Translations under genes and position numbers: made by a program
The notes under the pieces: model-generated
Told to the model about the DNA's origin: nothing
Seen by the model: only the letters and a program-made list of their open reading frames with translations
Databases searched by the model: none
Shown here: piece by piece, positions 19,234 through 64,000 of the stretch
Layout: the number at the start of each line of letters is the position of its first letter
How positions within the stretch are numbered: the first letter of the stretch is position 1
Origin: an uncultured Gammaproteobacteria bacterium
GTDB lineage: Bacteria; Patescibacteriota; Microgenomatia; UBA1406; HO2-37-13b
Assembly: GCA_964413645.1 (NCBI GenBank)
Contig: CAYPSA010000003.1
Coordinates: 19,328-83,327 of the forward strand
Length of the DNA: 64,000 nt
Direction of reading: 5' to 3'

Positions 19234-19253
19234 AGGTGAGTTCGAAAACTCCC

Positions 19254-19479: not shown

Positions 19480-19565
19480 TTGTAAATTTCTTTCCCGTTC
19501 GTTATAATACTTCTATTCTCAAAGACCAGTGGCAGCCCGCTTAAGACCACTGCGAGAGAAATACT
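19480..19565 (+). promoter_or_regulatory. sigma70-type promoter and structured 5' leader of rplJL
   Basis: TTGTAA (19480-85) is separated by a 17-nt spacer from TATAAT (19503-08). The leader carries the hairpin CAGTGG-cagcccgcttaaga-CCACTG (19527-19552) just upstream of the rplJ ATG. It could be an L10-leader-type autoregulatory site, which is inference. Confidence 0.45.
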
Positions 19566-24004: not shown

Positions 24005-24005
24005 T

Positions 24006-34303: not shown

Positions 34304-34556
34304 GGCAGTGCCTCTGGACACAATCGAGATTATGTCCATAGGAACTGCCCGAAGTGGTGATGAGGATTGACGAGGTGTCAAACCAAACCATGATCCACTT
34401 CGGGCGGGGGTTCTCTGCAAAAGCAGCGGGCGTATGGCAAACGTGAGCCATAGCTTACTGCGAAAGCAGCGGGTTTACGAAGGTTACTCCTTTTGAACTA
34501 GATGTTCAGATAGATCCAGGTAGGATCTGTGCGTATCGGCGGCTTTGGGGCAGCGT

Positions 34557-36953: not shown

Positions 36954-37571
36954 GGGGTTCTCCTTCATTATTGGGCAGTGCTATAAAAGCAACTGCAACG
37001 GGCGGGGGGGTCTTGTACAGTCCTGTTCGAGCGACTGATTGTTTCCGAAGAAAATAATACTGTCTGCAGTATGATATCGTCAGGTCGACGAGTACCGGTG
37101 CAAACGTTTAACTGAGTTTTAAACTCAGGTTGTTTTCCTGCAGTGCGAAAAATTGAACTGTCCGTCTTCCGATATTTTCCGACTCACTCCTTTCTTGTTT
37201 TTGAAAATGGGGAACCTCAGAACTTAGGATGTATATTTCATAAATCCTCAGATTCCCCATCTTCACTCTTAATATAGTTAATTTAGTAACCTTTTCCACA
37301 AAAGGAGATCCTTAGGCTTGCGCTGTTAGGATACAGATTTTTGTGGAAGTAAACCCAATTGTAAAAGTGCTTATTTGGAAACTATGAGTGGAAAATAAAT
37401 CTCCACCATCTTTCCCAAAAAATCCAACATTTTACCTGACTTGGGCCGGATGCAAAACCCGGCTTTTCGGGTAGAAAATGTAACCTATAGTTTATCAAAA
37501 AAAGGTGTAATTGTCAAGTTGGGACGCATTTACTTGTACTCATTATTATTTTGTATGCTAAAATACTTTTT

Positions 37572-38771: not shown

Positions 38772-40924
38772 GACTTTCTTCCATACTTCTCCTTACTCGT
38801 GGTAATAATCTTTTCTCGATTATCATTTTTTAGGTGGGGTAAGGGAAGCGTGAACGCGGGGAATGGCTGGGAAGTCATATTATCGACCGATAACTTCATA
38901 ACAATTTCAAACTTTCCTAAGGAAACCAAATCGGCTTCCGTGTATAGTTCCCCGAATTCCTTAGACAAGAAATAGGCGTCGCGTGCGCCTAACACAAACG
39001 ACATGAGTGTGCCTACATTTCCAAAAATGGCGCGTTGAATTTCAAGTTCCAGCTGTTCGGTATATTGATTAGCCAGGGTAAGTGATAATCGGTATTTTCG
39101 TGCCTCAGATAGGATCTTAATGAATGAATTCGTGGCAAAATTTTGAAACTCATCAACGTACAAGAAAAAATCTCGTCGATTTTCTTCTTTACTAAACGAT
39201 CGTCCCATCGCCGCAAGCTGGATTTGAGTAATAATCATGGCTCCAAGTAGAGATGCATTGTCTTCTCCGAGCTTTCCTTGCGACAGATTTAAGATGAGGA
39301 TTTTTCCTTCATCCATAATTTCAGCTAAATTAATTGATGACTTTGGAGATCCGATAATATTACGAATCATGGTAGAGGTTACGAATTGACCAACTTTATT
39401 TTGAATAGGGGAAACGGCTTCGGCACGCAACTTATCGCCCATTTTGGCAAATTCGGCATTCCAGAAGTTTTTGAGCACCGGATCGTTAATTTGAGGCACA
39501 ACTTTTGCCCGATATTCGTCGTCGGAAAGGATTCGAAGCGCGTCAACCAGCGTTGCATTTGGAATTTCCAACAGTGTCAAAATAACGTTTCGCAAAATAT
39601 ACTCGAGTCGTGGTCCCCAGCTTTTTCCGTATAACTTGGAAAAAATAGAGACAATTCCTGAAGCAACTAAGTGTTTTTGTTCGGGGTGGTGCACTTCCAA
39701 AACGTTCAGTTTAAATGGTCTTTCACTGTCAAATGGTTCTAAATATACCACGTCGTTTATACGACGCTTAGGAATATAATCCAAGATAATTTCAGAAAGA
39801 TCTCCGTGCGGGTCGATAATGCCAATTCCGCGGTCGCGACGAATGTCGTCGATTGCCATATTAGCGATAAGCGTAGATTTTCCTGCTCCTGTTTTTCCGA
39901 TAATATACATGTGCTTGCGGCGATCAGCGGTTTTTATACCAAAAATCTGATCCTTATTCTTAAATTCTGTTTTTGCAAAGAAATTAATGTCTTTCTTCTG
40001 TTCTTCGTCCATTTCTTCAGAAATTGGCAAGTCGTCAGGCGGTTCCCCCGAAAGTGCCTTACCCCAAGCAATATTTTTAACACCTTTGAGTAGAATTCCC
40101 GGTGGGTGCCATAAACTTGCAAGTTCTTGGGCATTTAGAATTTGATCTTGGCGTTCGAGCATGTACGTGGTTCGTTTAACCATACGGTCAAGTAACTGTT
40201 TTTTGAGCATTTTGCGTTTTTTAAAGCCAAATTGATTTCCGTCGCCTAGTGAAAACGTTCCAAATGTGCCTGCTAAATTGCTTAAGTAGCTCATGGCGCC
40301 CTCGTCGGTTGTATCGGCAGTAAGGAGTCGGATTAAGGCTTTGCCGCCTGAAAAAGCAGTTTTTCGAGAAATAATCATTTTTTGTGGGTTCATACCGTAT
40401 TTATCGGCACCTTTGTCGTAGCTCATTTTTTGAGCAAATGAAGCTGCGGCCTTTCCCCAGGCAAACGAAGCAGGCGTAATAAGGATCTGAATAGCAGCTT
40501 TTTGTTGAGGAGTTGAGCGTGCTAGAAAGCCTAAAATAGAAGAGAGAGGGTCGACATCTTTAAAATCGTAATACGTTTTAATGGGAAGGTAAAAAGACGA
40601 TGAAAGGGCAACTTCACCAAGAGCCGTATATGGGGAACTGGTTAGGTATGAAAGGGGGTCTTTGGTTTTGACGATTTTTGAGTTGGTAAACGATGAAGTA
40701 ATAAGGCTTTTTACGAACGTTTCACTTTTTTCACTTGTGGTGGCATACATATAAATGGTTTGACCGAGTAAATAGATTTCAAACGCATAATATTTTGGTT
40801 GAATATATAAGCGTTTAAGAGGGGGTAGGTACGAAGGAAGTAGAGAGGCGAAAATCTGACTTGCCGCTTCAATAGGCGTTTCGTCGTCTTTTGGATTGCG
40901 AACCTGTAAATGAACAAGGGACAT
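38768..40924 (-). CDS. P-loop ATPase of the VirD4/TraG/TraD (FtsK-HerA superfamily) type
   Basis: Walker A is MYIIGKTGAGKST and Walker B is FFLYVDEFQNF. A ~330-aa N-terminal domain of unknown function precedes the ATPase, and no TM helix is evident. Confidence 0.7.
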   Translation of the reverse strand: MSLVHLQVRNPKDDETPIEAASQIFASLLPSYLPPLKRLYIQPKYYAFEIYLLGQTIYMYATTSEKSETFVKSLITSSFTNSKIVKTKDPLSYLTSSPYTALGEVALSSSFYLPIKTYYDFKDVDPLSSILGFLARSTPQQKAAIQILITPASFAWGKAAASFAQKMSYDKGADKYGMNPQKMIISRKTAFSGGKALIRLLTADTTDEGAMSYLSNLAGTFGTFSLGDGNQFGFKKRKMLKKQLLDRMVKRTTYMLERQDQILNAQELASLWHPPGILLKGVKNIAWGKALSGEPPDDLPISEEMDEEQKKDINFFAKTEFKNKDQIFGIKTADRRKHMYIIGKTGAGKSTLIANMAIDDIRRDRGIGIIDPHGDLSEIILDYIPKRRINDVVYLEPFDSERPFKLNVLEVHHPEQKHLVASGIVSIFSKLYGKSWGPRLEYILRNVILTLLEIPNATLVDALRILSDDEYRAKVVPQINDPVLKNFWNAEFAKMGDKLRAEAVSPIQNKVGQFVTSTMIRNIIGSPKSSINLAEIMDEGKILILNLSQGKLGEDNASLLGAMIITQIQLAAMGRSFSKEENRRDFFLYVDEFQNFATNSFIKILSEARKYRLSLTLANQYTEQLELEIQRAIFGNVGTLMSFVLGARDAYFLSKEFGELYTEADLVSLGKFEIVMKLSVDNMTSQPFPAFTLPLPHLKNDNREKIITTSKEKYGRKS

Positions 40925-40966: not shown

Positions 40967-42118
40967 TTACGTAATGGGTGTAGCCGTAGGTGTAGGCGTA
41001 GCCGTCGGTTGCATAAGTGAAATAACCGAATCGAATGAGGCTTTGGGAGTACGATCGGCTTTTAGAATGCCCCAATGGCCATCTTTACCAAGCCACAGCT
41101 CATCGGTTAGCGTGTTAACAAAGACCATGCGCGGATTGTATTTACCTTTTTGCAAAGCCGCAAGTGCTTTGCCAAGGTATACTCCCTGATCGGCGGGCGT
41201 TACATTAGGATCGATTGTCGATACACCTATTTCAGGAATTGCAAGTTCATGGTTCGGGAATTGCTCGTGGAGGGCATCAATTTCGATAGGGAGGCGTGCG
41301 ATTTTAGCTTCATCTTTTCCGGCATAGTAGTCAAACCCCAATATATCAACATGGGGTGCGAGGGCAGTAAGTACTCGCATGTCCATTCCTATTCTATCAG
41401 TTCGTGAAGCGGTCATATTTATTGATGTTTTTGCTGCAGGATCGGCTGATTTTACTCCTTCGTTTGCTGCTTGAATGATTTGTTGCAGTTGGCTGAGTTG
41501 CTGATCGGATATATCGCTACGCCACGTGTAATTTCGAACTTCACGAGTATCGGGTTCATTAAATAATTGCCATACGGCAATTTTGCCTTTGTAGCGTGCC
41601 GCAAGAGATTCAAAGTATTCACGTGTGAATTGAACGTATTGTTCGTGGGGAACGTCTTGTAAAACTTCAGGAGTATTTCCAATGAGATTAATATCAAGTC
41701 CGCGTGAACGGGCATAGTCTATAACCTCATCGTATTTGGCTAAATTTTCCTCATTTAGTGCGTATCCTGTATCTGTTTTTGAAGCAGTTTCTGAGCCCCA
41801 TATATTGAAACGAATCCATTTTTGACCTTTTGAAGCCAGCAGGTCAATGTTTTGTTTAAACATATCAACCGTCATGTTGTTTCCTTCTTCTGGATTTACG
41901 AATACATGTGTGGCAAAACCAAATTCAGTAGGGTGTTCTCGTACAATTTCAGGCGTAATGGACGTAGGAGAAGTGTCGGGAAAGTGCTGGGCGAGTCTAC
42001 TCATGACTCCTCCAAGAATTGAGGGGCCTTTTATTGCAGCTAAAGCTCCTGCTGCGGCAAGACCGCTTGCGGTTAAAAATTGTCTGCGTGTAGGGACGAA
42101 TCGTTCGTTATCACTCAT
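40967..42118 (-). CDS. secreted TIM-barrel glycoside hydrolase-like protein (GH5-like) with a twin-arginine signal
   Basis: It is trimmed to MSDNERFVPTRRQFLTASGLAAAGALAA, which has the Tat motif RRxFL. The candidate acid/base is WQLFNEPD and the candidate nucleophile is AIPEIGVS. A C-terminal PTATPTPTATP tail is present. Confidence 0.6.
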   Translation of the reverse strand: MSDNERFVPTRRQFLTASGLAAAGALAAIKGPSILGGVMSRLAQHFPDTSPTSITPEIVREHPTEFGFATHVFVNPEEGNNMTVDMFKQNIDLLASKGQKWIRFNIWGSETASKTDTGYALNEENLAKYDEVIDYARSRGLDINLIGNTPEVLQDVPHEQYVQFTREYFESLAARYKGKIAVWQLFNEPDTREVRNYTWRSDISDQQLSQLQQIIQAANEGVKSADPAAKTSINMTASRTDRIGMDMRVLTALAPHVDILGFDYYAGKDEAKIARLPIEIDALHEQFPNHELAIPEIGVSTIDPNVTPADQGVYLGKALAALQKGKYNPRMVFVNTLTDELWLGKDGHWGILKADRTPKASFDSVISLMQPTATPTPTATPIT

Positions 42119-42360
42119 GGAAATATTGTAACAGATATGACGGGCGATTGAATCTAAGCCCATAGCATAGTATAATGATCGCAGTTTTTTTATGGTTTGA
42201 AAAAACGAACGCCGCGCATTTGCTGTTCGGATAGTTTGTTCTTTTAAGCACCTTACCAATGAGGGTAGATTATTATTTGTTTCATTTTTGGAAACAGACA
42301 GGCTTTTTTGGGCACAAAAACAACACGGAACCCATTTCCGTTTAACCGTCAACATCCGCT

Positions 42361-42393
42361 GTAGACCAAAGGTCTACTGAGTCCTAGGAGGAC
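42361..42393 (+). promoter_or_regulatory. conserved leader: hairpin GTAGAC-caaag-GTCTAC followed by the SD box GTCCTAGGAGGAC
   Basis: An almost identical unit lies at 43081-43115. SD-box-only copies lie at 42554-42567, 42880-42893 and 43784-43796. Each sits 2-5 nt upstream of a start codon. Confidence 0.7.
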
Positions 42394-42397
42394 GACT

Positions 42398-42517
42398 ATG
42401 ATGTTCATGTTCATATTGCTGGTAGTCCTGTTGATCTTGTGTCTTGCTGCTGCAAAGCTGCTTCAATGGCTTTTTTTAGATGGCAATCCACCAGATGATC
42501 CAGGCAACTACTTCTGA
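42398..42517 (+). CDS. small hydrophobic peptide (39 aa, 1 TM)
   Basis: It is not in the ORF track because it is under 60 aa. The sequence is MMFMFILLVVLLILCLAAAKLLQWLFLDGNPPDDPGNYF. It is preceded by AGGAGGAC 4 nt upstream. Confidence 0.55.
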   Translation: MMFMFILLVVLLILCLAAAKLLQWLFLDGNPPDDPGNYF

Positions 42518-42571
42518 TCCACCATCCGCCGGACGGCTTTGAAAGTGTCATATGTCCCAAGGAGGACAACC

Positions 42572-42847
42572 ATGAAACGGACAAAGAGCGAATGGATCTC
42601 ACTGGTTGTGTATGCACTTCCAGTACTGATTGGCGCTTTCGGATACTGGCTGACTAGGGAGGGATCGCTTTTGCTTCTAGCACTCGGTTTTGGCTTTATC
42701 CTCGTTATCGAAGTCTTCGGTAACACGGGCATTGCCGACACGGATATGAACGACGATGATCCCATTGTGTTTTCAGGACCTCCGACCCGTCAAGGTTCTA
42801 CGCCTGATCGGTTTCGTGGCCGCCACGACAACATTTCCTTAAGATAG
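42572..42847 (+). CDS. small membrane protein (91 aa, 2 TM)
   Basis: ORF 42539..42847 is trimmed to the ATG at 42572, which follows gtcccAAGGAGGACaacc. The sequence begins MKRTKSEWISLVVYALPVLIGAFGYW... Confidence 0.6.
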   Translation: MKRTKSEWISLVVYALPVLIGAFGYWLTREGSLLLLALGFGFILVIEVFGNTGIADTDMNDDDPIVFSGPPTRQGSTPDRFRGRHDNISLR

Positions 42848-42895
42848 GAAATCCGCCGCAGACATTCGTGTCTACTAGAGTCCCAAGGAGGACAA

Positions 42896-43066
42896 ATGAG
42901 AATCTGTCTGGACTTGCAACTCGCCTTTCCTATTGCACTCATACTAATGTCTGTTGGTATGGTGCTCGGAACGACGCTCTCGTTCACCCTGCAATTAGCA
43001 ACGCACTTCGTACTTGCCATGCTCAAAGATTCAAATGAGGAGGTGAAGACCGCCAACGAGCCGTGA
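42896..43066 (+). CDS. small membrane protein (56 aa)
   Basis: It is not in the ORF track. The sequence is MRICLDLQLAFPIALILMSVGMVLGTTLSFTLQLATHFVLAMLKDSNEEVKTANEP. It is preceded by gtcccAAGGAGGACaa. Confidence 0.55.
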   Translation: MRICLDLQLAFPIALILMSVGMVLGTTLSFTLQLATHFVLAMLKDSNEEVKTANEP

Positions 43067-43080
43067 CATGTTCCATCCGC

Positions 43081-43115
43081 GTAGACTTTCAAGTCTACTT
43101 GAGTCCTAGGAGGAC
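43081..43115 (+). promoter_or_regulatory. second copy of the hairpin plus SD-box leader
   Basis: The unit reads GTAGAC-tttcaa-GTCTAC-ttga-GTCCTAGGAGGAC, 5 nt upstream of the ATG at 43121. Confidence 0.7.
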
Positions 43116-43120
43116 GCACA

Positions 43121-43282
43121 ATGACCTTCAGATTGAAGGGGCTAGGTTTGACAGTTAGTCTCTGCGGAAGCGTCGTCTTGTGCGACTGGCTTTTTCGTAA
43201 CGGACACCCTTATTGGGGGACTGTTGCCATACTTCTGCCAGTCGTCAACTTGGCCTTCCTGTTCGACTTTCTGGAAAACTAG
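43121..43282 (+). CDS. small membrane protein (53 aa, 2 TM)
   Basis: It is not in the ORF track. The sequence is MTFRLKGLGLTVSLCGSVVLCDWLFRNGHPYWGTVAILLPVVNLAFLFDFLEN. Confidence 0.55.
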   Translation: MTFRLKGLGLTVSLCGSVVLCDWLFRNGHPYWGTVAILLPVVNLAFLFDFLEN

Positions 43283-43371
43283 AAACCCGCGCCACCGTCA
43301 GATCATCCGATCTGGGCACCAATTCAGCATTCTCCGAACTCCTTTGGAGTTCTAACAGAAAGAAGAGAGCC

Positions 43372-43731
43372 GTGCTTCGAAGACTAGTCGTAAACTTGAC
43401 GCTTATTCTGAGTGTCGTCGCTATGTGGTTGGTCTTTGATCAGCCCAACGTGGCGTTCGCACAGAACCCGACCCCGGCCGTTTCGTCAAGCCGTACCTTC
43501 ATCGGTCCGGCTCCGTCCAGCTTGGACACCAAAGAACCTGTCGGCAACTCGTCGATGCCTGCGACTGAGCAGCGTGCAAAAGTGACCCCATGGTCATTCG
43601 TCTGGCGACTCGCTACCACCTACATCTTACTTGGTGGGGCGATCGTTCTCATTACACTCCTTCGCAGGAGCTATACAAAGCCGAAGTCGCGCAAGCGAGG
43701 AGAGCCGAAGTTCGATCAGCGACACTTCTGA
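43372..43731 (+). CDS. small secreted/membrane protein (119 aa; N-terminal signal-like helix and C-terminal TM)
   Basis: ORF 43213..43731 is trimmed to the GTG at 43372 after a purine-rich stretch. The N-terminus is VLRRLVVNLTLILSVVAMWLVFDQPNVAFAQ and the C-terminal TM segment is YILLGGAIVLITLL followed by a basic tail. The start is uncertain. Confidence 0.45.
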   Translation: MLRRLVVNLTLILSVVAMWLVFDQPNVAFAQNPTPAVSSSRTFIGPAPSSLDTKEPVGNSSMPATEQRAKVTPWSFVWRLATTYILLGGAIVLITLLRRSYTKPKSRKRGEPKFDQRHF

Positions 43732-43799
43732 TCGCACGACAACTCTTTTCGCCACTGACCCGGGTCAAACGACTTGATCACATGTCCAAGGAGGACACC

Positions 43800-43970
43800 G
43801 TGAAACAGTGCCTCGTATACCTGGTCTTAAGCGTTTTGTTGGGAAGCCTCCTGTTGTTTGGACAGACCTGTCCAACAATGATTGAGAGACTCATCGGGGG
43901 CTTCTTCCTGGGTATGTCCGGCGTATACACTGCGTTCTTCGCAGTCCTGCGAAAGCTGCAGAGTCCTTAA
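43800..43970 (+). CDS. small membrane protein (56 aa, 2 TM)
   Basis: ORF 43590..43970 is trimmed to the GTG at 43800, which follows gtccAAGGAGGACacc. The sequence is VKQCLVYLVLSVLLGSLLLFGQTCPTMIERLIGGFFLGMSGVYTAFFAVLRKLQSP. Confidence 0.55.
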   Translation: MKQCLVYLVLSVLLGSLLLFGQTCPTMIERLIGGFFLGMSGVYTAFFAVLRKLQSP

Positions 43971-44118
43971 GGGATTCGGCGACTAGGCTTGGGGGGGGCG
44001 GGTGACCGTTTCGTAGTTGCACAGCTTTGTGCATACGGTCATTCGCCCCTTCGCGTTCTTTTTTCCAAAAACCAATAACAAACAGTTTCTACCCTCATAA
44101 TTTCTTCTGAGAATATTT

Positions 44119-56631: not shown

Positions 56632-57324
56632 ATGTCAGGACATTCTAAATGGTCACAAATTAAGCGTAAAAAGGGAATTACCGATCAGAAACGGGGGCTC
56701 GTCTTCTCAAAGCTGTCTCGTCTTATTACGGTTGCTGTAAAAGATGGTGGGGGAATGGGAGACCCGGACAAAAATGTTCGGCTTCGCTTGGCTGTACAAC
56801 AGGCTAAAGAAGAAAATATGCCTCGTGAAAATATTGAACGGGCAATTGAGAAAGGTAAGGGTGGGGGAGCCGATTCTCTCAAAGAAGTCGTTTATGAGGG
56901 GTTTGGACCTCAGAGCGGTTCGTTTTTAATTGTAGCAACTACCGATAATTCCAACCGAACCCATGCGGAAGTGAAGCTTGCACTTGAAAAAAATGGAGGG
57001 AAAATGGGAAATATTAATTCGGTCGCATATAATTTTCAGAAGTGTGGGCTGGTATTGCTTCCTAAGAGTTCTACGACTGAAGTAGACGCCTTTGCAATAG
57101 GTGAAAAACTCACCATTCTCGATATGGAAGAAGATGATGAATCGTATATTCTATATATACCGTTTGAAAAAATTGGAGAAGCAACCGACATGTCTGTAGA
57201 AATTTTTTACCGCCCCCTGACTGCAATTTCAATTGCAGAGGAGTCTCAAGAGAAAGTTCACAAGCTTCTAGACATACTGGAAGGGTTAGATGATGTTGCG
57301 AAGGTGTACACTAATTATGCTTAA
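56632..57324 (+). CDS. YebC/PmpR-family DNA-binding transcriptional regulator
   Basis: MSGHSKWSQIKRKKGITDQKRGLVFSKLSRLITVAVKDGG is diagnostic of the family. The start is trimmed to the ATG at 56632. Confidence 0.9.
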   Translation: MSGHSKWSQIKRKKGITDQKRGLVFSKLSRLITVAVKDGGGMGDPDKNVRLRLAVQQAKEENMPRENIERAIEKGKGGGADSLKEVVYEGFGPQSGSFLIVATTDNSNRTHAEVKLALEKNGGKMGNINSVAYNFQKCGLVLLPKSSTTEVDAFAIGEKLTILDMEEDDESYILYIPFEKIGEATDMSVEIFYRPLTAISIAEESQEKVHKLLDILEGLDDVAKVYTNYA

Positions 57325-58132
57325 CAGAAAAGATATTGCAAAAAATTTGTTTAAATTGTTTATACGCATTGAAAAACGTCGACGATTCATTATTTCCACT
57401 TTTTTTCTAACGCTTCTCATGATTGTTTCTACCTATTTTAGTTTTGAAGCAGCTAGTTTCTTTGTTATTCCCATTATTGTATTGGTATATTTTCTAACGT
57501 ATTTTTCAATTCTTGAGGGAATTACGGATAAAGAGTGGCTCATGTTATTTGTTCCTCCTTTATATTTTTCGGTGGTTTTTTACTTGTTCTATTTTTTCTT
57601 GCCGCAGCGATGGTTGGCACGTGCGCCGTTTGCCGTTTTGTATTCAATATCAATTTATGCACTGTTGTTGTCGCAGAATATTTTTAATGTGGGAGTAGAG
57701 AAGAGCCTGCAGTTATATCGCGCAGCATTTTCGATTAACTATTTATTCTTAACACTTACAATGTTTTTGGCGACGAGTTTGCTATTCTCATTGCGATTAC
57801 TGTTTGTGGTGAATGGGCTACTTATTTTTGTAATGTCACTGCCACTTGCTCTGCACTTTGTATGGTCAATCAGTCCACAGGAGCATGTCGAGCGGTCGGT
57901 ATTTAAGCATGCACTGGTTGTTTCCGTTATTTTAGCACAGGCAGTTATGGTGTTCTCGTTTATTCCGATTACGCCCAGTGTATTTTCATTAGTCGTGACT
58001 GCATTGTTTTATAGTTTGTGTGGACTTTTAAGCGCGCATTTAACATCGCGGTTGTTTAGAGAGCGTATTCGGGAATATTTATTCGTATTGGGTGCTGTGT
58101 TTGTGATTACGCTCCTGACTGTTAAGTGGTAA
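57317..58132 (+). CDS. hypothetical polytopic membrane protein
   Basis: About 8 hydrophobic helices are present. The start at 57317 overlaps the upstream stop, and the ORF track alternative is 57290. Confidence 0.6.
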   Translation: MLNRKDIAKNLFKLFIRIEKRRRFIISTFFLTLLMIVSTYFSFEAASFFVIPIIVLVYFLTYFSILEGITDKEWLMLFVPPLYFSVVFYLFYFFLPQRWLARAPFAVLYSISIYALLLSQNIFNVGVEKSLQLYRAAFSINYLFLTLTMFLATSLLFSLRLLFVVNGLLIFVMSLPLALHFVWSISPQEHVERSVFKHALVVSVILAQAVMVFSFIPITPSVFSLVVTALFYSLCGLLSAHLTSRLFRERIREYLFVLGAVFVITLLTVKW

Positions 58133-58140
58133 TTTAGATC

Positions 58141-58184
58141 GTCCACCTTCCAGGTTATCTACGCACTGTCCACCTTCCAGGTGG
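58141..58184 (+). terminator. two copies of GTCCACCTTCCAGGT; the second forms the hairpin CCACC-TTCCA-GGTGG
   Basis: Copies lie at 58141-58156 and 58167-58184, directly after the stop at 58132, followed by a T-rich tract. The same motif occurs in reverse orientation at 52675-52690. Confidence 0.45.
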
Positions 58185-58615
58185 CGAGTTTTGTGCCTAA
58201 TTCATGCCTAGGCCGTGCCTGACGCATCCTTGTGAGACTCTTAAAATACTTCTTAGTAAATATGGCTCAATTTCTTCAGCACTTGCTTACAATATCTCGA
58301 TACGAGACGAATTTAATGCGTAATTATAAAAAAATCGTGCCTAGATGTTGAGATCCTAGGCATAAAGTAGGGAGGAGGGGAGTAGGAAAAGTGACGGACG
58401 TGAGTTTTCCGTATAATTTGCTATAAGACAATATACTATCCTGTAGTATTTGATAATTTATGCGTAATTTGAACAAAATATGGAATTATTTAAATATTTG
58501 TTTTCAAAAGTATGTTCAGAATTCTTTACAAATAGCGATGTGCTACACTCCGACTTAGTGTGCTAACAATGTGGATAACGTAATAAAATAGGCATAAAAG
58601 TTACAGAATGGCTTA

Positions 58616-58912
58616 TTATAACGCTCTAAAGTGTTGCTAATAGAAACGTCCAAAGTTCAGTAAATTAGCCACGAAAATATCAAGATAGATTGTTATAAGG
58701 CTCTAAACAGGGCCCCTGTAGGATCGACGTACAGCACGTATACTCTAAACGAGGCTATATCCATGCGTACAACATGAAAACGAGCCTAGAAGTTAGCTAT
58801 AAAATGGTTCAAACGGACTGTCACTACGCTCCAAAACACGCTGGTACTTTGTTTGCTAAACATGCAAAATTAGGCATAAAAAGCACAAAACGGAGCGTTA
58901 TAACGCTCCAAA
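58616..58912 (+). repeat. five same-orientation iteron-like repeats (TTATAACGCTCYAAA consensus), the last embedded in an 18-bp perfect palindrome
   Basis: The five copies are ttataacgctctaaa (58616-58630), ttataaggctctaaa (58693-58707), gtatactctaaa (58738-58749), ctacgctccaaaa (58824-58836) and ttataacgctccaaa (58898-58912). The palindrome GGAGCGTTATAACGCTCC spans 58892-58909. Confidence 0.6.
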
Positions 58913-59450
58913 TAAACACGTGTAAAAGCCCTCCGAGTACTCGTTCTGGGGAGTACCGCCAAAACGCAATAATTACGAAATTGTAGAACGACCAACTTAT
59001 TAAAAGAGAACAGTAATTTGCATGCCAAACATTCTTCTCCTCCTTTTCATTTGTCGTAGAATATTCACATAACCGACTACTTGTATATAAGGCGTATTTG
59101 TAGCCAGGGAAACAAGGATCTACAACGTCGTAAATTGTATCTTTTACGACGTTTCGTCTTGACGTCTTCAGGGAAGTGCTATTTTTGCAGTTCATTAGTT
59201 ATCTGCTATTAATGTATTAATTTCTCCCCTTGCGCCGCTGGCCAAATTAGCCTATTTGCTCCCTAACGGTATTAATCCAAAATTTTGGGTCTCCCCCTAT
59301 TATAGGCCATTTGGGGAAGTACTAATATGTTGATATAACAAGCCAAACTGCCCTGTTCCCTGGCATTTGTTGGGGTCGGGGACTTGCATTTTCAGGCCTG
59401 TCTGCCGACAGGCAGGCACAAAATAGGCATAAATTTGCACCTTGCAAGGT

Positions 59451-61868
59451 ATGTCTCTCTATGTATATAATCGTAGGTATATGGTCTTTGCCAGAAGCTT
59501 TAAACGTATCTTTGCAGCTCCTAAACAGGGGGAAATAGCACTCACTTTAACCGTAATCTCGTTAGTAACAATGCTTTTTGGAACAGTAATTGGATTAAAT
59601 CGTCAAGCACCACAAGATGTGCGAACAAGCGCCGCCGGAGGGGTTCAATGTGGGAGTTTTGGTTGTACTAAGAATAGTGATTGCGCCCAAAGTCCCATTA
59701 AGACCTTATGTCATCTTGCTTCTGGACAGTGTAGGCCTATGTCAACAAAGGATTCTTGTCCGGGCGTTACGGCACGTGTCGGCGGGGATACTAAGCAAGA
59801 CGTTGGTGGGTCGTGTATTACCGCAACAGATTGTAAAACAGGTCTTACATGTCCGGCACGAGTTTGCGTTGCTCCTGTTGGGGGAGGATCTGGAGGTACT
59901 GGTGGCACCGGAGTCACGGGTAATCCAGAGTCACCAATTCCTACGGGAACCACAGGGTCCGGAGTTGGAACTGCATTTTCAGTGTTAGAATTACCCTGTA
60001 AAGTCGACTTTACGTTTAGATGGGACCCGCAATTGCTTTCATTGACAATATCTGATCCAGACAATCCAGTAAATGTTTTTGTCGCTGATAATTCAAAGGT
60101 ATTACATAAAGATCCTGCGGGAGTAGAAGGTCCAATTGGAAAAACAATTACCTATCCGAGTGGTGGAAGTGCTGGAATTTTTGTTACATTTGACCCTACC
60201 AAATCTGATGAGATTTCAATTACATTAAATGGTGGGGGTGGTGGTTTGGAATCAGTAGGACGCTATTATTTCAGAATGCCTTCATGGATGATCGGATCAG
60301 CTCGTTATAGAGTCGATATTACCTATGAAGGTAAAGTGGCAGGAGTAAAGCACCAGTGGTCCCAACAAGGTCGTGCAAAGATTTGCACCAATGTGACACC
60401 TACTGTGACAGTTCCTCCTGCACAAGTGGCCTGTGGAAATGAATGTGAGACTACAGCTCAATGTGCCGATCCTGAAAGAAGAGGGATAACGTGTAGATTT
60501 CCTTCGACGACATATGTTCGTTTAACACCAAATCCTGCTGATAAAAAGTATTGTTTATTACCTCCACCACATAATTCTCGTACATGTGTGCCAAATACTC
60601 CTACCCCACCTACCGGGACGCTTACACCTACTAAAACGCCTACGCCAACTGCAACCGTAACGCCTACTCCTCCTACTAGTACCCCTACCCCACCTGTTTG
60701 TAGAAAATCCGTGTATTTTATGATTGATAATACGGCGTCACAAACTAATAATATTTTATATCTTCAGGATGAATTGAATAAATTCTTTACCGCGTTCAAG
60801 AGTTCGTATGTAATAGATTATTCGTATCAAACATTTAACATAACAGCACCTGATGAGAGTGGATCAGGATCGAACACTATTAATTTTCAATTCTCAAGAG
60901 ATAGAAACTGGACCAATATTGGTATGGCATTTAAAGAAATGAAAAAAGCAGTTGCAGATATAAAGATTTTTGTATCTGATGGTGTTGTAACGGTGTCTGG
61001 TGATGAAACGAAGAGTGAGATTATATGTGTATACGATGATAACGGAAATAAAATAAATGGTTGTGACCCAGTTGCTAAAAATCGAGATCCCGCCACTAAC
61101 CATAAGACAATTGCGGAATGTGTTGCGAAATATGGAGTAGACTATTATAAAGCATGTCGTGCACCAAATGATCCAGGAAAATCTAATGCCAATCACGCTA
61201 TCGGAGCTCTTGGTGCGGGTGGGGCTGGAATCGACACAGATAATATGAATAAATCACTAGCCAATGGTGGGAAATATCATCCATCTATAGATTCATTTAT
61301 TAAAGAGTTGCCATCGATACTTGCTAATCTGTGTCCTGCTGGTGGTTCCCCGGTGGGCCCAGCACGTCGGTTATCAACATCATTTAGCTTGCAAAACAAA
61401 TCCACCAAAACTATTCAGAAAGTTACTGTTAAAACCTGTTCTGATCAAGGCACCGAATGTAGAGACTTTGTAAATCCTGTTCAGGTTGCTCCTCAGCAAA
61501 CCAAGAGCTTTTCACAGGTAATTCCGGATAGTGTTCCGGTAACAAGTCGAGAATTACTTACCTGTAGCATTGGCTATACCGATGGCTCTTCCCTGCCCTG
61601 TCCGCGAAAAGAAACACAAAATGAAAGTGTTCAGTTTAAATTAAGTACAACAAATCGATTAGTATCGGGATCTGCTCAAACATATTTACAGGCTTCGGAT
61701 ATTAATAATGATGGTCGGGTGAATGCGATTGATTATGTGTTGTGTCAGCGCCAGATCGCTGGATCAGGCGCTAAATCATGTGATATTATTCCCGATAATG
61801 TGATCAATGCTCAAGACTTCTCTGTCGTTACCGAACGATTTGGTCAAAGTACGCAAATAAATCAATAG
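59451..61868 (+). CDS. large Cys-rich surface protein with a TadE/G-like N-terminal anchor, a vWA-like domain and a C-terminal dockerin
   Basis: The N-terminus is KQGEIALTLTVISLVTMLFGTVIG. Cys-knot-like repeats and a TPTPT linker follow. The vWA-like core reads VYFMIDNTASQ...IKIFVSDGVVT. A 4-Cys module reads LQNKSTKTIQKVTVKTCSDQGTEC...LTCSIGYTDGSSLPC. The dockerin reads SDINNDGRVNAIDYVLCQRQI and CDIIPDNVINAQDFSVVTERFG. The start is ambiguous (59442 TTG, 59451 or 59481 ATG). Confidence 0.75.
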   Translation: MSLYVYNRRYMVFARSFKRIFAAPKQGEIALTLTVISLVTMLFGTVIGLNRQAPQDVRTSAAGGVQCGSFGCTKNSDCAQSPIKTLCHLASGQCRPMSTKDSCPGVTARVGGDTKQDVGGSCITATDCKTGLTCPARVCVAPVGGGSGGTGGTGVTGNPESPIPTGTTGSGVGTAFSVLELPCKVDFTFRWDPQLLSLTISDPDNPVNVFVADNSKVLHKDPAGVEGPIGKTITYPSGGSAGIFVTFDPTKSDEISITLNGGGGGLESVGRYYFRMPSWMIGSARYRVDITYEGKVAGVKHQWSQQGRAKICTNVTPTVTVPPAQVACGNECETTAQCADPERRGITCRFPSTTYVRLTPNPADKKYCLLPPPHNSRTCVPNTPTPPTGTLTPTKTPTPTATVTPTPPTSTPTPPVCRKSVYFMIDNTASQTNNILYLQDELNKFFTAFKSSYVIDYSYQTFNITAPDESGSGSNTINFQFSRDRNWTNIGMAFKEMKKAVADIKIFVSDGVVTVSGDETKSEIICVYDDNGNKINGCDPVAKNRDPATNHKTIAECVAKYGVDYYKACRAPNDPGKSNANHAIGALGAGGAGIDTDNMNKSLANGGKYHPSIDSFIKELPSILANLCPAGGSPVGPARRLSTSFSLQNKSTKTIQKVTVKTCSDQGTECRDFVNPVQVAPQQTKSFSQVIPDSVPVTSRELLTCSIGYTDGSSLPCPRKETQNESVQFKLSTTNRLVSGSAQTYLQASDINNDGRVNAIDYVLCQRQIAGSGAKSCDIIPDNVINAQDFSVVTERFGQSTQINQ

Positions 61869-61884
61869 TGTGTATAATGATAGT

Positions 61885-64000
61885 ATGGCTATGCGTCGTC
61901 GATATTCTACTCGTGGTGAAATTGCTTTAACATTCACTGTCGCTTCCCTATTTGTAATGGTGGTTGGATCTATTTTTGGATTAGGTGTGAATAAAAGTCA
62001 AGACGTGCGTTCACAAGCCGCAGGAGCAGTGTGTGGAAAAACATGTTCAACTAGTGGAGATTGCGGCTTGGATTCTACGACCGGAACACAAACTACATGC
62101 GATCGATCAATTGGTAAATGCGTAGCTGTTCGTGACCCTAAAAATCCGCCTTGTAATGCAACCGGTCCCAATTCACTTGGACAATGTAATCAGAGTTGCA
62201 GGAATACAGAACAATGTAATGGTATTGACCATGCCACCGGTATTTCGCTTGCATGCGATTTAAGCACGTATACATGTCAGCAGAAATATGTAAATGATAC
62301 GCGCCAATGTCCTGGGTATGTGCGCCCAACTCCACGTACTAGTGGTTCATCGGGAAATCCAGGCGGATCATTCACATCGCGATCGCTTGTTTGCGGAGCA
62401 GCATTTAGAGTCGTTGTAGACCCATTAATCAATAAAATTACACTTTCTGCAAAAGGCCAAAGCTACGACATTGGTTTGGCTGATGTAGTAGTCCCCGCCT
62501 CAAGCGGTTTTACTGGTCCTAACAGCCCAATTCCCTATCGAATGTGGAAGCCTGCCCCAAATGATCCTTTGGATAATTTATTAATAGAATGGAATCCAAA
62601 TACTTCATATACTGCTCCCGGAGTACCCAAAGGCGCGCTTCATGTGCAGGTTCGAAGCGGAAATGATGCTAATCCCCATTCAAAAGTAAACCCACAAGTT
62701 GATTTCTATTATTTCAGAAACCTGCCGACATGGCTTAAAGATGGTAGCCCGGTTACGGTAACATTCTCGTATTACACACTTTCAGGTGCTCAAAGTAAGC
62801 AAGTACGGACGGATTATACGATTACAGAAAATGCAAAGGCGTGTGTGGGAGTTGTGGTAACGCAGACGCCAGTTAGTACTGTGGTACCTACGACCATTAC
62901 ACCAACAGTAGTGCGACCAACGGGAATAACACCTACTGGTGTGCTTCCAAGCAGAACACCTTCTATTCCGCCTACAAATCCTCCTACCCGAGTACCAAGC
63001 AGAATTCCTACAGTACCACCAACTAATCCCCCCACGCAAATACCAAGCAGAGTCCCCACTCCCCCATCGTGTAGCGCCAAAATTACTTTCATGATCGATG
63101 CATCAGAAACCACACAAGAAAAATTAAAGGAATATCAGAGCGATATTACATCGGCTGTTAGATCGTACGGTACTGCACATCCACAAGACAAAATCGACTT
63201 TTACACTAATTATTTTGCCCGCGATGTAAGTAATCCATCGGGTCCGTTTACTGCGAGTGCATTTCAATTCCCTATTACGCTTGGACTACACTGGACGAAT
63301 ATGAAAGAAGCTCTTGAAAAAAGTTCAGGTAAAACCATATTTATTTCCGATGGGTTACCTTCGGTAGTTCGTTATGGCGGTGCACGAAATGCATTCTGCG
63401 TATATGCTGATGGTGGTGCGATGCGAGGTCAAGATACTAATCGAAAAGCCGATGGATGCGATCCTGATCAGAATGTTTCTGACAAGTATAATCGAGACAT
63501 TGCAGGATTTTGTGACAGAATTTGTACAACTAAAAAATACGGGAATGCTCGTGTCGATTCTCTAGTAATGAGAAACAAAGATAATACGTATGGTATTTTC
63601 GTGAACACTGGAGCTTATTCAGATCGTGGTTTCATGGAGGAAATTTCAAAAGAAGTAATTAATATCTCTGAATTGCCAGCTACGATAGCAGAAATTTTTG
63701 ATGATGTATGTGGCCGAGCTGCTATTGCTCCACGACCCCGAACGGGTTCAGGAAGATCGAAAGGTCCCGGTTCCAGTTCCGGTCCTCTATCTCTCACATC
63801 AACATTCGTAATCACCAACCAATCGACCGAAAAAACAGTCGAATCGGTTAGTGTAAAGGCATGTGATATTGCAGGAAATAATTGCCAAACGTACGATAAT
63901 GAAGTGTTAATTGTTCCCGGAGCAACAGGTCGCTTTTCTCAAACAATTCCAGCTACTGTTCCTGCGCAAAATCGAGCAATGATAACGTGCGATGTTAATA
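61885..64000 (+). CDS. paralog of 59451..61868 (partial; runs off the window end)
   Basis: It is not in the ORF track because there is no stop before 64000. The frame stays open from the ATG at 61885. The N-terminus is MAMRRRYSTRGEIALTFTVASLFVMVVGSIFG. Cys-rich repeats and a P/T linker follow. The vWA-like core reads KITFMIDASETTQ...TIFISDGLPS. The 4-Cys module begins FVITNQSTEKTVESVSVKACDIAGNNC. Confidence 0.7.
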   Translation, partial: MAMRRRYSTRGEIALTFTVASLFVMVVGSIFGLGVNKSQDVRSQAAGAVCGKTCSTSGDCGLDSTTGTQTTCDRSIGKCVAVRDPKNPPCNATGPNSLGQCNQSCRNTEQCNGIDHATGISLACDLSTYTCQQKYVNDTRQCPGYVRPTPRTSGSSGNPGGSFTSRSLVCGAAFRVVVDPLINKITLSAKGQSYDIGLADVVVPASSGFTGPNSPIPYRMWKPAPNDPLDNLLIEWNPNTSYTAPGVPKGALHVQVRSGNDANPHSKVNPQVDFYYFRNLPTWLKDGSPVTVTFSYYTLSGAQSKQVRTDYTITENAKACVGVVVTQTPVSTVVPTTITPTVVRPTGITPTGVLPSRTPSIPPTNPPTRVPSRIPTVPPTNPPTQIPSRVPTPPSCSAKITFMIDASETTQEKLKEYQSDITSAVRSYGTAHPQDKIDFYTNYFARDVSNPSGPFTASAFQFPITLGLHWTNMKEALEKSSGKTIFISDGLPSVVRYGGARNAFCVYADGGAMRGQDTNRKADGCDPDQNVSDKYNRDIAGFCDRICTTKKYGNARVDSLVMRNKDNTYGIFVNTGAYSDRGFMEEISKEVINISELPATIAEIFDDVCGRAAIAPRPRTGSGRSKGPGSSSGPLSLTSTFVITNQSTEKTVESVSVKACDIAGNNCQTYDNEVLIVPGATGRFSQTIPATVPAQNRAMITCDVN

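Follow-up and report, generated by a model that had tools for sequence, protein, structure and literature searches.

The ORF-free region 3′ of the DUF5656 gene in this Candidatus Roizmanbacteria genome (CPR/Microgenomates) is best read as a deeply conserved chromosome-maintenance locus of Microgenomates-type CPR bacteria, anchored 3′ of yebC-DUF5656. Our preferred explanation, to which we give a probability of roughly 45%, is a Xer/dif site abutting an origin-like module, an arrangement that fits the published hypothesis of an adjacent origin and terminus for some Microgenomates (PMC7143001). The palindrome at 59124-59153 would be the recombination site of a single XerC/D-family recombinase resembling archaeal XerA and would serve as the chromosome's dif site, at which dimers would be resolved through Xer cleavage. 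The DnaA box (58570-58578), the AT-rich tracts (58412-58512 and 59178-59225) and the repeats (58585-58912) would together form a chromosomal origin or a derivative of one, with DnaA binding the box, another protein binding the iterons and the AT-rich DNA opening. Since such an origin would lie within ~0.7 kb of dif, replication would proceed essentially one way round the chromosome. We advance only tentatively the wider proposition that the main chromosomes of many Microgenomates and related CPR bacteria replicate one way, from a DnaA-box/iteron origin abutting a Xer/dif site at the former terminus of a bidirectional ancestor.

An ORF-free gap conserved downstream of DUF5656

Positions refer to the window, that is, the whole 64-kb stretch of DNA that was analysed. 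The ORF-free stretch under study spans 1,309 nt and ranks second in the window after 18112-19565 (1,454 nt), rather than first as originally claimed, and neither of its two track ORFs (58774..58986 and 58824..59195) had a Pfam match. It contains or adjoins the following features:

57290-58132: DUF5656 membrane-protein gene, upstream of the region
58141-58184, + strand: two 15-nt direct repeats GTCCACCTTCCAGGT, peripheral to the module
58189-58221, − strand: three tandem copies of (G/A)TGCCT(A/G) at 11-nt spacing, the reverse complement of the TAGGCA motif
58369-58450, + strand: conserved block 1, with G-rich GGGAGGAGGGGAGTAGG, then ACGGACGTG, then TATCCTGTAGTAT
58412-58512, unstranded: AT-rich tract, 80% AT, from a nearest-neighbour stability scan
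58570-58578, − strand: perfect DnaA box, reading TTATCCACA on the − strand and TGTGGATAA on the + strand
58585-58630, 58662-58707, 58790-58835 and 58867-58912, + strand: four 46-nt bipartite direct repeats, plus a fragment at ~58738-58750
58892-58909, unstranded: 18-bp perfect palindrome GGAGCGTTATAACGCTCC, inside the fourth 46-nt unit
59124-59153, + strand: invariant palindrome AACGTCGTAAATTGTATCTTTTACGACGTT, recognized from alignment, metagenome contigs, xer adjacency and a phage copy
59160-59225, + strand: purine-rich motif CAGGGAAGTG (consensus GAGAAGTGG), then the second AT-rich tract (59178-59225), kept in both lineages
59413-59471, + strand: CAGGCACAAAATAGGCATAAATT, the right-hand inverted partner of 58189-58221, then a promoter-like TTGCAA-N18-TATAAT (59442-59471)

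All ten related genomes have a gap of 0.8-1.45 kb without ORFs after DUF5656, irrespective of the downstream gene; it can be aligned in blocks down to 40% identity of the flanking protein (11 loci including the window). No ORF of at least 120 aa overlaps the palindrome in the ten genome loci (L001-L010), and nearly all metagenome loci are likewise free of an overlapping ORF of at least 110 aa, the exceptions being L043, L081 and L125. Across the broader metagenome set, synteny extends only to the upstream gene. Exact-sequence look-ups returned no match for either P0241 or the DUF5656 protein of the window. Lineage B has the same order of elements (G-rich block, direct repeats, DnaA box, AT-rich tract and palindrome) but repeats of other sequences; short direct repeats vary from lineage to lineage, and one submodule is inverted between lineages. 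Block 1 aligns across all 11 loci, down to the same 40% flanking-protein identity; positions of CCTATAGTA were mapped separately, and the CCTRTAGTA motif of the block occurs in one to three direct copies in relatives. Block 1 also holds a sigma-70-like pair, GTGACG-N17-TATAAT (58391-58419), which on its sequence might conceivably be a promoter.

The edges of the region are less widely shared. The second GTCCACCTTCCAGGT copy folds into a GC-rich stem-loop with a T-rich run behind it (58170-58184), probably the intrinsic terminator of the upstream DUF5656 gene, and the GTCCACCTTCCAGGT repeats are absent from the alignment of distant relatives. The element at 58189-58221 is specific to one clade (window, L001 and L003) and inverted relative to 59413-59435; the element at 59413-59471 is conserved only in L001 and L003 and probably represents the true regulatory DNA of the adhesin gene. 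The TGCCTA cores noted at 58194, 58205 and 58338 are present and make up 3 of the 14 copies in the window. A 13-mer said to be shared with position 12696 is not above chance, the region sharing three 13-mers where random 1.3-kb stretches average 11. Most of the motifs in the original prediction are real, its iterons being confirmed in part.

The original prediction also offered a dense regulatory region for the giant adhesin (dockerin) genes as an equal alternative to an origin. The region does lie directly upstream of 59442-61868, with a copy of the 10-mer TAGGCATAAA 9 nt before the promoter-like site, yet the module is kept in ten genomes whose downstream genes are of quite other kinds and frequently face the other way. 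Adhesin genes are present only in the window and L001-L003, and six of the ten genomes have unrelated housekeeping genes on the opposite strand (ABC transporter, inositol monophosphatase, aldolase). We therefore consider this explanation of the whole region hardly credible; at most the last 60-100 nt, around the promoter-like site, can belong to the adhesin gene.

An invariant palindrome linked to Xer recombinase genes

The palindrome at 59124-59153 has, strictly taken, perfect 11-nt arms (59124-59134 and 59143-59153) separated by 8 nt; the earlier description of a hairpin with a 10-bp stem at ~59125-59151 was correct except that the arms are 11 nt long. Positions 59125-59152 can equally be parsed as 11 + 6 + 11 (ACGTCGTAAAT, TGTATC and TTTTACGACGT), the layout of two arms and a short centre in the published definition of dif (PMC2958812). 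At 55% identity of the flanking protein, the palindrome remains 94-100% identical. At least 120 metagenome contigs contain it, one copy each, and each of 131 sequences (the window and L001-L130, all of them loci or contigs) has a single copy. That this hairpin is the most conserved element of the region, and is tied to a Xer recombinase, had escaped the earlier reading.

RNAalifold predicted eight stem pairs in the palindrome that are invariant across 48 diverse sequences, save one mismatch in one sequence, and none of which covaries, giving the palindrome the look of a protein-recognized DNA site. The same result bears on a structured non-coding RNA or long 5′ UTR, which would account for a conserved, ORF-free region whose + strand is G-rich in L004-L010 and, if the pair in block 1 is a promoter, for that pair as well. 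RNAalifold predicted the palindrome alone, with zero compensatory pairs, and Rfam gave no match either at the gathering threshold across the whole window or at E values up to 10 across 58000-59600. The ~100-nt AT-rich tract, a half-site that flips and the inverted submodule are the behaviour of DNA sites, and we judge an RNA highly improbable. ARAGORN detected three tRNAs, all of them elsewhere in the window.

Of 39 lineage-B loci, 31 have a gene for a XerC/D-family recombinase within 1.5 kb, in most of them 250-520 nt from the palindrome, and xer is also found near the locus in L010, L120, L093 and two contigs of 64-65% GC. The lineage-B neighbour genes match XerD/XerC models with E values of 1e-75 to 1e-73 (1e-75 to 1e-63 for the XerD/XerC/XerA-like genes overall), and the recombinase in L010 reaches the cutoff for archaeal XerA. 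No xer gene was found in the window over the 58 kb to the left and 4.8 kb to the right of the palindrome. Being both the most conserved element and tied to a Xer recombinase, the palindrome points to a terminus (dif) function. It is probably a Xer (dif-like) recombination site, and its 28-30 invariant base pairs make it a strong candidate for dif even if the origin reading is set aside. A limited literature search found no report of a dif site for the CPR radiation, and no papers on dif or oriC in CPR bacteria or on CP066689.1.

Resemblance to the Escherichia coli dif site was dropped as evidence: identity is 14/28 in the window and 15/28 in lineage B, where the best match in shuffled sequences averages 16.3, so that it is not above chance. 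A parallel is offered by XerH/difH of Helicobacter and XerS/difSL of Streptococcus and Lactococcus, in which a single recombinase is likewise encoded next to a near-palindromic site (PMC3325230, PMC1914069). Their site sequences are unrelated to the palindrome, however, the CPR protein scores best on XerD, XerC and archaeal XerA models and not on XerS, and the window's own lineage is without an adjacent xer gene. We know of no conserved DnaA box or iteron module beside difH or difSL. The archaeal XerA/dif system shares the 11-6-11 layout, nearly perfect arms, a unique, intergenic and conserved site, and AT-rich flanks with repeats, and its recombinase, to which the CPR protein is related, does not need FtsK in vitro (PMC2958812); archaeal dif, by contrast, lies in the terminus zone away from xerA, in a system with Orc/Cdc6 and no DnaA.

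The flank of the palindrome is also conserved. A purine-rich motif paired with an AT-rich tract is kept at +25 to +200 nt in both lineages; read in the palindrome's orientation, the AT fraction is 0.80 in group A (+50 to +99) and 0.79 in group B (+100 to +149). One further copy of the palindrome lies 3 nt after terS on a phage contig, which also has portal and TerL genes, as expected of an element that integrates at a Xer site. If this is correct, the palindrome would also be a likely attachment site for CPR phages.

DnaA box, AT-rich tracts and iteron-like repeats

As originally described, a perfect DnaA box is present at 58570-58578; it is the only one in the window, where all other matches need two mismatches. 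The perfect box is kept in 72 of 101 related loci, always in one orientation, and a box with at most one mismatch in 89 of the 101. Perfect copies of TTATCCACA number 72 in 80.8 kb of modules versus 3 in 719 kb of flanks (0.89 versus 0.004 per kb), an enrichment of more than 200-fold. The modules thus carry the conserved high-affinity DnaA box, at least one of which is expected of an oriC. There is no cluster of boxes: modules have only one consensus box, with ~1.1 boxes of at most one mismatch per locus, and the module of the complete Roizmanbacteria genome CP066689.1 has no recognizable box.

The predicted AT-rich tract (~58449-58510) is also real. At 58412-58512 it has the lowest computed stability of any 100 bp in the window, and it is a candidate DNA-unwinding element. 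It lies 60 nt from the box in the window, not 10-13 nt, and the tract of lineage B (~100 nt long) lies 60-70 nt from the box. Compared with the R1 box and unwinding element of E. coli, the lineage-B box faces its AT-rich tract the opposite way. In the basal unwinding system, a box is followed by a spacer of at most 16 bp and then by at least three DnaA-trios (PMC8287927). Inspection by eye revealed no convincing run of trios at that spacing, and any AT-rich DNA yields '.A.' runs. Overall, the module resembles bacterial oriC and its basal unwinding system (PMC8287927) in the high-affinity box, a GC-rich patch by the box in lineage B and an easily melted AT stretch; it differs in having one box instead of a cluster, in the spacing and orientation of the AT tract, which are unlike a spacer of at most 16 bp, and in the absence of an adjacent dnaA or dnaN and of a skew minimum.

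Beside the box stand the direct repeats. The 10-mer TAGGCATAAA occurs exactly as claimed, four times on the + strand (58357, 58589, 58871 and 59424), and the window has no further copy; the chance expectation is 0.21, and none of 100 shuffles reached four copies. The five iteron copies reported as a 15-mer held up less well: those at 58616 and 58898 are exact, those at 58693 and 58821 carry one and three mismatches, and that at 58738 is a mere fragment. Across the window, the 15-mer with up to three mismatches was found 10 times versus 5 expected, a count reached in 7 of 100 shuffles and so not significant. The repeat proper, a 46-nt bipartite unit (AAAWTAGGCATAAAA-N17-TTATAACGCTCYAAA) beginning at 58585, 58662, 58790 and 58867, is longer than the 15-mer and joins the '10-mer' and the 'iteron' of the original prediction. 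Each unit comprises half-sites TAGGCATAAAA and TTATAACGCTCYAAA ~17 nt apart, and the start-to-start spacing is 77 nt within both pairs (58585/58662 and 58790/58867).

Among relatives, the 46-nt units are kept in number and position, the first half-site can be inverted, and unit 2 of L005-L009 reads TGAGGCTA instead of TAGCCTCA; positions of GCTCTAAA were mapped separately. Lineage B has two to four copies of GWTTGTCATA at ~24-nt spacing. The 46-nt units are likely protein-binding iterons. A degenerate CRISPR array (46-nt repeats with 31-nt spacers) was considered and rejected, as unit positions are conserved across genomes and the units are bipartite like protein sites. The 18-bp perfect palindrome at 58892-58909, present as described, is kept in L001, nearly so in L003 and absent in L004-L010.

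Tandem direct repeats, a DnaA box and an AT-rich region thus occur together, the combination that marks iteron-type origins. This raises the possibility that a plasmid-like replicon once integrated here and that its origin survives, intact or as a remnant; the palindrome and recombinase gene could then be a multimer-resolution site. Iteron plasmid origins such as those of pSC101, P1 and RK2 share the single DnaA box, AT-rich region and regular tandem repeats, and pSC101 replicates unidirectionally. The CPR module differs in its longer bipartite repeats (46 nt, 77-nt period), in being chromosomal and vertically inherited, and in having no Rep-type gene among its annotated neighbours (yebC, DUF5656 and varied housekeeping genes). 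More than 100 contigs show deep, vertical synteny of the module with housekeeping genes, at a constant location, and we regard a plasmid-like origin as very unlikely.

Strand skew, gene orientation and the direction of replication

For a replication origin, the original prediction had named a GC-skew minimum near 58-59 kb and a nearby dnaA as checks. No minimum was found there, the skew having the same sign on both sides, and no dnaA occurs within 58 kb to the left or 4.5 kb to the right; near the module, neither dnaA nor dnaN was found in any of the 130 related loci. The claim of an origin is thus supported by the conserved DnaA box, AT-rich tract and iterons and opposed by the lack of a skew minimum and of a nearby dnaA, and it survives only if the origin adjoins the terminus.

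Per-gene regression put third-codon GC skew at ~+0.1 on the DUF5656 sense strand on both sides of the locus, with side effects of only −0.003 ± 0.007 in lineage A and −0.009 ± 0.011 in lineage B. Skew was positive on both sides in 18 of 19 loci, sampled over at most 10 kb per side, so that a position in mid-replichore would look alike locally. In the window, it is positive for genes of either strand throughout the 58 kb to the left, and mild (~+0.06) compared with the extreme G/C disparity in published genomes of another order (UBA1400). One relative, L135, has chiefly a C3 bias at the codon level, with hardly any strand-fixed skew. Raw GC skew had suggested a terminus, all six lineage-B loci being positive to the left and negative to the right, but this was rejected as a coding-strand artefact (strand effect 0.093, side effect −0.013). 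Gene orientation does converge on the locus: in lineage B, ~95% of coding sequence is on the + strand to the left, and 0-20% at 2-10 kb to the right. Rightward replication from the module would therefore meet most genes just to its right head-on.

These patterns bear on a conventional terminus, in which the palindrome is the dif of bidirectional replication and the iterons, DnaA box and AT tracts are accessory or architectural DNA (cer/psi- or Ter-like) serving Xer recombination, fork arrest or the organization of the terminus. Converging genes and the xer gene adjoining the palindrome agree with it, as do archaeal dif sites, whose conserved AT-rich flanks and repeats were proposed to bind partner proteins (PMC2958812), and one-sided repeat arrays of the same orientation would suit polar fork barriers. 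Third-codon skew is nevertheless unreversed in those 18 of 19 loci independently of gene strand, and so behaves like replication skew, unless skew in these genomes is weak or unrelated to replication, which would explain the missing reversal. No role at a terminus is known for a perfectly conserved DnaA box of high affinity, and the known Xer accessory systems do not use DnaA: cer and psi, which adjoin the Xer core site, use PepA, ArgR and ArcA. Weighing both sides, we think a conventional terminus somewhat unlikely, though a serious rival.

A mid-replichore locus would carry a DnaA-binding control site (datA/DARS-like), with the palindrome serving mainly as an attachment or recombination site for mobile elements that exploit Xer, or for a locally acting recombinase, and the sign of the skew set by the conserved yebC-DUF5656 operon always being on the leading strand. 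Like the accessory DNA of cer and psi, datA and DARS are 0.2-1 kb of non-coding DNA that act via bound proteins, and they bind DnaA outside oriC; they differ from the module in having several DnaA boxes and no Xer site. Skew of the same sign on both sides and the phage-borne palindrome would be in keeping with such a locus. The module lies at ~82% of CP066689.1 (~904 kb), ~83% of OZ246401.1 (~777 kb) and ~15% of CAZLGV010000001.1 (~120 kb), neither 0% nor 50% if the records start at the origin. The sharp convergence of gene orientation would go unexplained, and chromosomal dif sites are usually recognized by just these traits of invariance, a single copy and linkage to xer; we consider this location distinctly improbable.

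A Xer/dif site abutting an origin-like module, the explanation we prefer, accommodates a dif site, convergent genes and unreversed skew at once, as these are expected of an origin next to an old terminus. For bacterial main chromosomes, replication in both directions from oriC, with dif opposite, is treated as a near-universal rule, and one-way replication has to our knowledge been documented so far only in plasmids and in a few chromids derived from plasmids. Monotonic cumulative GC skew occurs in complete Microgenomates genomes (Ch65, Collierbacteria and Beckwithbacteria), for which the authors proposed an adjacent origin and terminus or unidirectional theta replication, locating neither (PMC7143001). 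The present locus, with its Xer site, DnaA box, AT-rich tract and iterons, is a concrete and widely conserved candidate on which to test that 2020 hypothesis. If the hypothesis is true, origin-finding and growth-rate (iRep/PTR) tools, which assume bidirectional replication, would have to be applied differently to CPR bacteria, as would skew checks of their assemblies.

A close precedent is found in unidirectionally replicating Pseudoalteromonas chromids, where dif2 adjoins ori2 and GC skew has an atypical, non-V form, an accepted signature of one-way theta replication (PMC7858055). Those chromids are plasmid-derived secondary chromosomes with a RepA initiator, ori and dif 4-27 kb apart and a direction demonstrated by coverage; the CPR locus would belong to a main chromosome, with a DnaA box and the two elements less than 1 kb apart. 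In searches with further proteins, DnaB gave no match from CP066689.1, OZ246401.1 or CAZLGV010000001.1, and a VirD4-like protein revealed a VirD4 gene 30 kb from the module in CAZLGV010000001.1.

Sequence elements of the ORF-free module and its relatives

After re-reading positions 57800-59700 and verifying the motifs mechanically, we located the following features in and beside the ORF-free region (hereafter the module), of which the DnaA box, the 18-bp palindrome, the hairpin and the AT-rich tract had been correctly recognized in the original prediction:

57290-58132, gene for a multi-pass membrane protein (DUF5656 by the database's precomputed annotation), situated behind a yebC-family gene
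58140-59440, ORF-free module
58412-58512, AT-rich tract, where the window has its least stable 100 bp
58570-58578, perfect DnaA box TGTGGATAA, the sole perfect box in the window
58585, 58662, 58790 and 58867, four copies of a 46-nt bipartite unit, AAAWTAGGCATAAAA-N17-TTATAACGCTCYAAA
58892-58909, 18-bp palindrome
59124-59153, hairpin with 11-nt perfect arms separated by 8 nt

Exactly four copies of the 10-mer TAGGCATAAA exist in the 64-kb window, all of them on the + strand and within the module, against a chance expectation of 0.21. The two repeat families described earlier are not separate, being halves of the bipartite unit, which has a 77-nt spacing within each pair. A 13-mer in common with position 12696 is at chance level: the module has fewer 13-mers in common with the remainder of the window than random 1.3-kb stretches do. 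In the window and two reference-genome loci only (L001 and L003), the module ends are bracketed by inverted copies of a TAGGCAY motif (three or four tandem GTGCCTA repeats at 58189-58221 on the left, CAGGCACAAAATAGGCATAAA at 59413-59435 on the right), an arrangement suggestive of a DNA-binding protein specific to the clade, able perhaps to loop or pair the two ends.

Searching reference genomes with the DUF5656 protein revealed 10 loci, all from CPR/Patescibacteria, with 95% down to 40% protein identity to the window's copy; they are labelled Roizmanbacteria, Woesebacteria or Microgenomates, some of these labels being wrong. All 10 have 0.8-1.45 kb without ORFs after the gene, and these gaps align blockwise. 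The aligned blocks are a G-rich one with CCTRTAGTA repeats behind it, the DnaA box, the bipartite units and the hairpin. The last is the best conserved block of all, remaining 94-100% identical, loop included, where the flanking protein is only about 55% identical. Dockerin 'adhesin' genes follow the gap in the window and its three closest relatives alone; at the other loci the downstream gene is an ABC-transporter, inositol-monophosphatase, aldolase or amino-acid-kinase gene, mostly on the opposite strand. Because the downstream genes vary in this way, the suggestion that the region regulates the adhesin genes could hold at most for its last ~100 nt. Our own Pfam scan assigned the 57290-58132 protein to no family, whereas the precomputed annotation assigns PF18900 (DUF5656) to this protein and to most listed homologues, a discrepancy that may reflect a difference in model version or threshold.

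A palindrome with one copy per locus, linked to Xer recombinase genes

A pattern scan of metagenome contigs with the hairpin palindrome (GTCGTAWAWTRTATSTTTWACGAC) recovered at least 120 contigs with one copy each, and no second copy was found in any of the 131 sequences examined (the window and L001-L130, all of them loci or contigs). Two main variants were distinguished. Lineage A, which includes the window, has the form ...TATCTTTTACGAC, with 400-1100 nt between the end of the DUF5656 gene on the left and the site. In lineage B the form is GTCGTATAATGTATGTTTAACGAC, flanked on one side by a gene encoding 317-351 aa and on the other by one for a multi-pass membrane protein of 260-282 aa, which can be aligned over its full length with the DUF5656 protein of the window (22% identity).

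Rfam revealed nothing in the region, and RNAalifold, applied to 48 non-redundant sequences of lineage A that ran from 330 nt ahead of the hairpin to 90 nt beyond it, predicted only the hairpin. Its eight pairs were invariant across these sequences except for one mismatch in one sequence, with no compensatory changes. In L005-L009, the first half-site of one unit is inverted, with TGAGGCTA replacing TAGCCTCA. When each locus was oriented by the asymmetric centre of the palindrome, a patch rich in purines and a peak of about 80% AT appeared 50-200 nt to its right in both lineages, while the DnaA box was 400-600 nt to the left in lineage A versus 200-300 nt to the right in lineage B, which indicates that the palindrome and AT-rich segment are inverted between the lineages. 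Judging from these alignments, invariance without covariation, a flipped half-site and an inverted segment are the behaviour of protein-binding sites, and the module would thus act as DNA, not RNA.

The palindrome can be parsed as 11+6+11 (ACGTCGTAAAT-TGTATC-TTTTACGACGT), the architecture that defines dif sites (PMC2958812). Its 317-351 aa neighbour in lineage B is a tyrosine recombinase of the XerC/D family (XerD, 2e-75; XerC, 8e-74) that also matches the archaeal XerA model at about that model's cutoff. Of 39 distinct lineage-B loci, 31 have xer at most 1.5 kb from the site; the gene is also near it in L010, L120, L093 and two contigs of 64-65% GC. The closest analogues of the site are XerH/difH and XerS/difSL, in which a single recombinase is encoded beside its site, and archaeal XerA/dif, with near-perfect arms and AT-rich flanks. 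Raw identity to Escherichia coli dif (14-15/28) is not above chance, so the assignment rests on architecture, invariance, copy number and xer linkage. Membership of the dif class is partly established: the architecture and a cognate recombinase are present, every sequence examined has a single copy, the sequence consensus is absent and the position relative to the terminus is ambiguous (convergent genes, no skew reversal within 10 kb).

The two GC-rich contigs (L071, 1433-1456; L101, 2412-2435) carry the identical 24-nt palindrome core with an Xer-family gene 0.8-1.1 kb away; their composition is far from that of CPR, and the xer-plus-site pair may extend beyond CPR or be horizontally mobile. 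A phage contig from IMG/VR (L137), encoding portal, large-terminase (TerL) and small-terminase (TerS) proteins, contains the palindrome variant GACGTCGTATATTATATGTTTAACGACGTC at 6021-6044, 3 nt past the terS stop codon. Two metagenome contigs (L070 and L072) have the same variant, preceded at 6 nt by the end of a 183-aa ORF. A phage copy of a unique host site would be expected for an element integrating through the host Xer system; L137 could represent a CPR phage that does so, or the palindrome may have a second role as a packaging signal.

Origin, terminus or both

The second hallmark of the module is its conserved DnaA box, present with at most one mismatch in 89 of 101 distinct loci. Across these loci, module DNA (80.8 kb in all) contains 72 perfect copies of TTATCCACA, in one orientation throughout, compared to three in 719 kb of flanking DNA. 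With the DUF5656 gene set on the left, lineage B has the same order of elements as the window:

Order of elements in lineage B, left to right
1. Gene stop
2. G-rich patch
3. CTATAG motif
4. Two to four direct repeats of GWTTGTCATA, with about 24-nt spacing
5. TGTGGATAAC (25 of 26 sequences), ahead of the palindrome by 129-371 nt, and by 172-232 nt in 23 of them
6. GC-rich patch, often
7. Extremely AT-rich tract of about 100 nt
8. Palindrome

Membership of the module in oriC is nevertheless not established. Modules carry essentially one box each instead of a cluster, that of the complete genome CP066689.1 has none, and the DnaA trios expected of a basal unwinding system could not be demonstrated. 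Two signs of an origin named in the original prediction, a nearby dnaA and a switch in GC skew, also failed to appear: no DnaA-protein signature was detected in the window or 130 loci (1.1 Mb in total), and the locus has no skew minimum.

Raw GC skew in lineage B was positive to the left and negative to the right at six of six loci, as at a terminus, a reading rejected after per-gene regression attributed 0.093 ± 0.007 to gene strand and -0.013 to side. Third-codon (GC3) skew is largely free of the gene-strand effect. With the DUF5656 gene on the + strand, its value on that strand was about +0.1 to the left and to the right alike, up to 10 kb away, in each lineage (side effect, -0.003 ± 0.007 in A and -0.009 ± 0.011 in B), and 18 of 19 loci with enough coding sequence were positive on both sides, revealing no reversal of either kind. 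In the window it is positive over the whole 58 kb leftward, for genes of either strand, and the two adhesin genes that follow show lower values, +0.08 and -0.09. One locus (L135) has coding strands rich in C3 whatever the gene orientation, a codon-level bias with strand-fixed skew near zero, so skew behaviour is not uniform among module carriers.

Gene orientation, in contrast to skew, flips at the locus: in lineage B the + strand carries about 95% of coding sequence on the left and 0-20% at 2-10 kb on the right, compared to 50-94% and 32-43%, respectively, in lineage A. A conventional origin accounts for neither the skew nor the convergent genes and Xer site. The main rival, an ordinary terminus dif site with accessory DNA, would explain the latter two while leaving the skew pattern unaccounted for, and we consider it a serious but less likely alternative. 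A DnaA-binding or attachment locus in mid-replichore is quite improbable; its position would suit the skew at the cost of leaving gene convergence and the dif site unexplained.

Our preferred reading, held tentatively at a probability of about 0.45, is that the module is a combined origin-dif junction of one-way-replicating, Microgenomates-type chromosomes. An Xer/dif-type site would lie where genes converge, as at an ancestral terminus, and the conserved DnaA box, the iterons and a readily melting tract are all no more than a few hundred bases from it; skew would not reverse at such a junction, and dnaA would have remained where the former origin lay, away from the module. Kadnikov et al. found cumulative GC skew to be monotonic round the whole chromosome in complete Microgenomates genomes (Ch65, a Collierbacteria and a Beckwithbacteria) with genes split approximately evenly between strands, and proposed either closely spaced origin and terminus or unidirectional theta replication, identifying neither origin nor terminus (PMC7143001). 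The closest functional analogue is found in Pseudoalteromonas chromids that coverage shows to replicate one way, where dif2 adjoins ori2 (PMC7858055). Our confidence is limited because the published monotonic-skew genomes belong to another order, skew around the module was compared over 10 kb on either side only, the DnaA box is single and missing from the CP066689.1 module, and genes just right of the module would be replicated head-on. The searched literature contained no description of the module or of a CPR dif site, and published speculation on an adjacent origin and terminus now has a testable locus.

In three records that are complete or very long, the module lies at ~82% of the record length in L132 (CP066689.1), ~83% in L005 (OZ246401.1) and ~15% in L135 (CAZLGV010000001.1), the last becoming 85% if the record is flipped; this may reflect a fixed distance from dnaA, or coincidence.

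Other features of the window

The module, first described as the largest ORF-free stretch, is only the second largest. The longest (18112-19565, 1454 nt) lies just upstream of the ribosomal protein L10 gene (19566-20084), includes several of the window's least stable AT-rich spots (18105-18165, 18856-18916, 19253-19313 and 19434-19494) and matched nothing in Rfam at the gathering threshold. GC-rich islands occur at 34000-37000 (0.51-0.55) and 42000-44000 (0.50) in 2-kb windows, against about 41% for the genome. The first contains an 803-aa ORF (34557-36968, - strand; 61% GC) without a Pfam match and not rRNA by Rfam, possibly foreign DNA or a feature that has escaped recognition.

At 38768-40924 (- strand) lies the gene for a VirD4/TrwB-like type IV secretion coupling protein, which is highly conserved (about 70% identity) in many contigs of Roizmanbacteria and other Patescibacteria; the gene is about 18-30 kb from the module in the window and CAZLGV010000001.1. 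The window also encodes a cellulosome-like protein set (3243-12474, 23168-26861 and 59442-64000), unusual equipment for an ultrasmall CPR bacterium: dockerin domains on giant proteins (3243-7352 and 59442-61868), small cohesin proteins (11878-12474 and 23168-24004) and an M4 metallopeptidase with both a cohesin and a dockerin domain (24006-26861).
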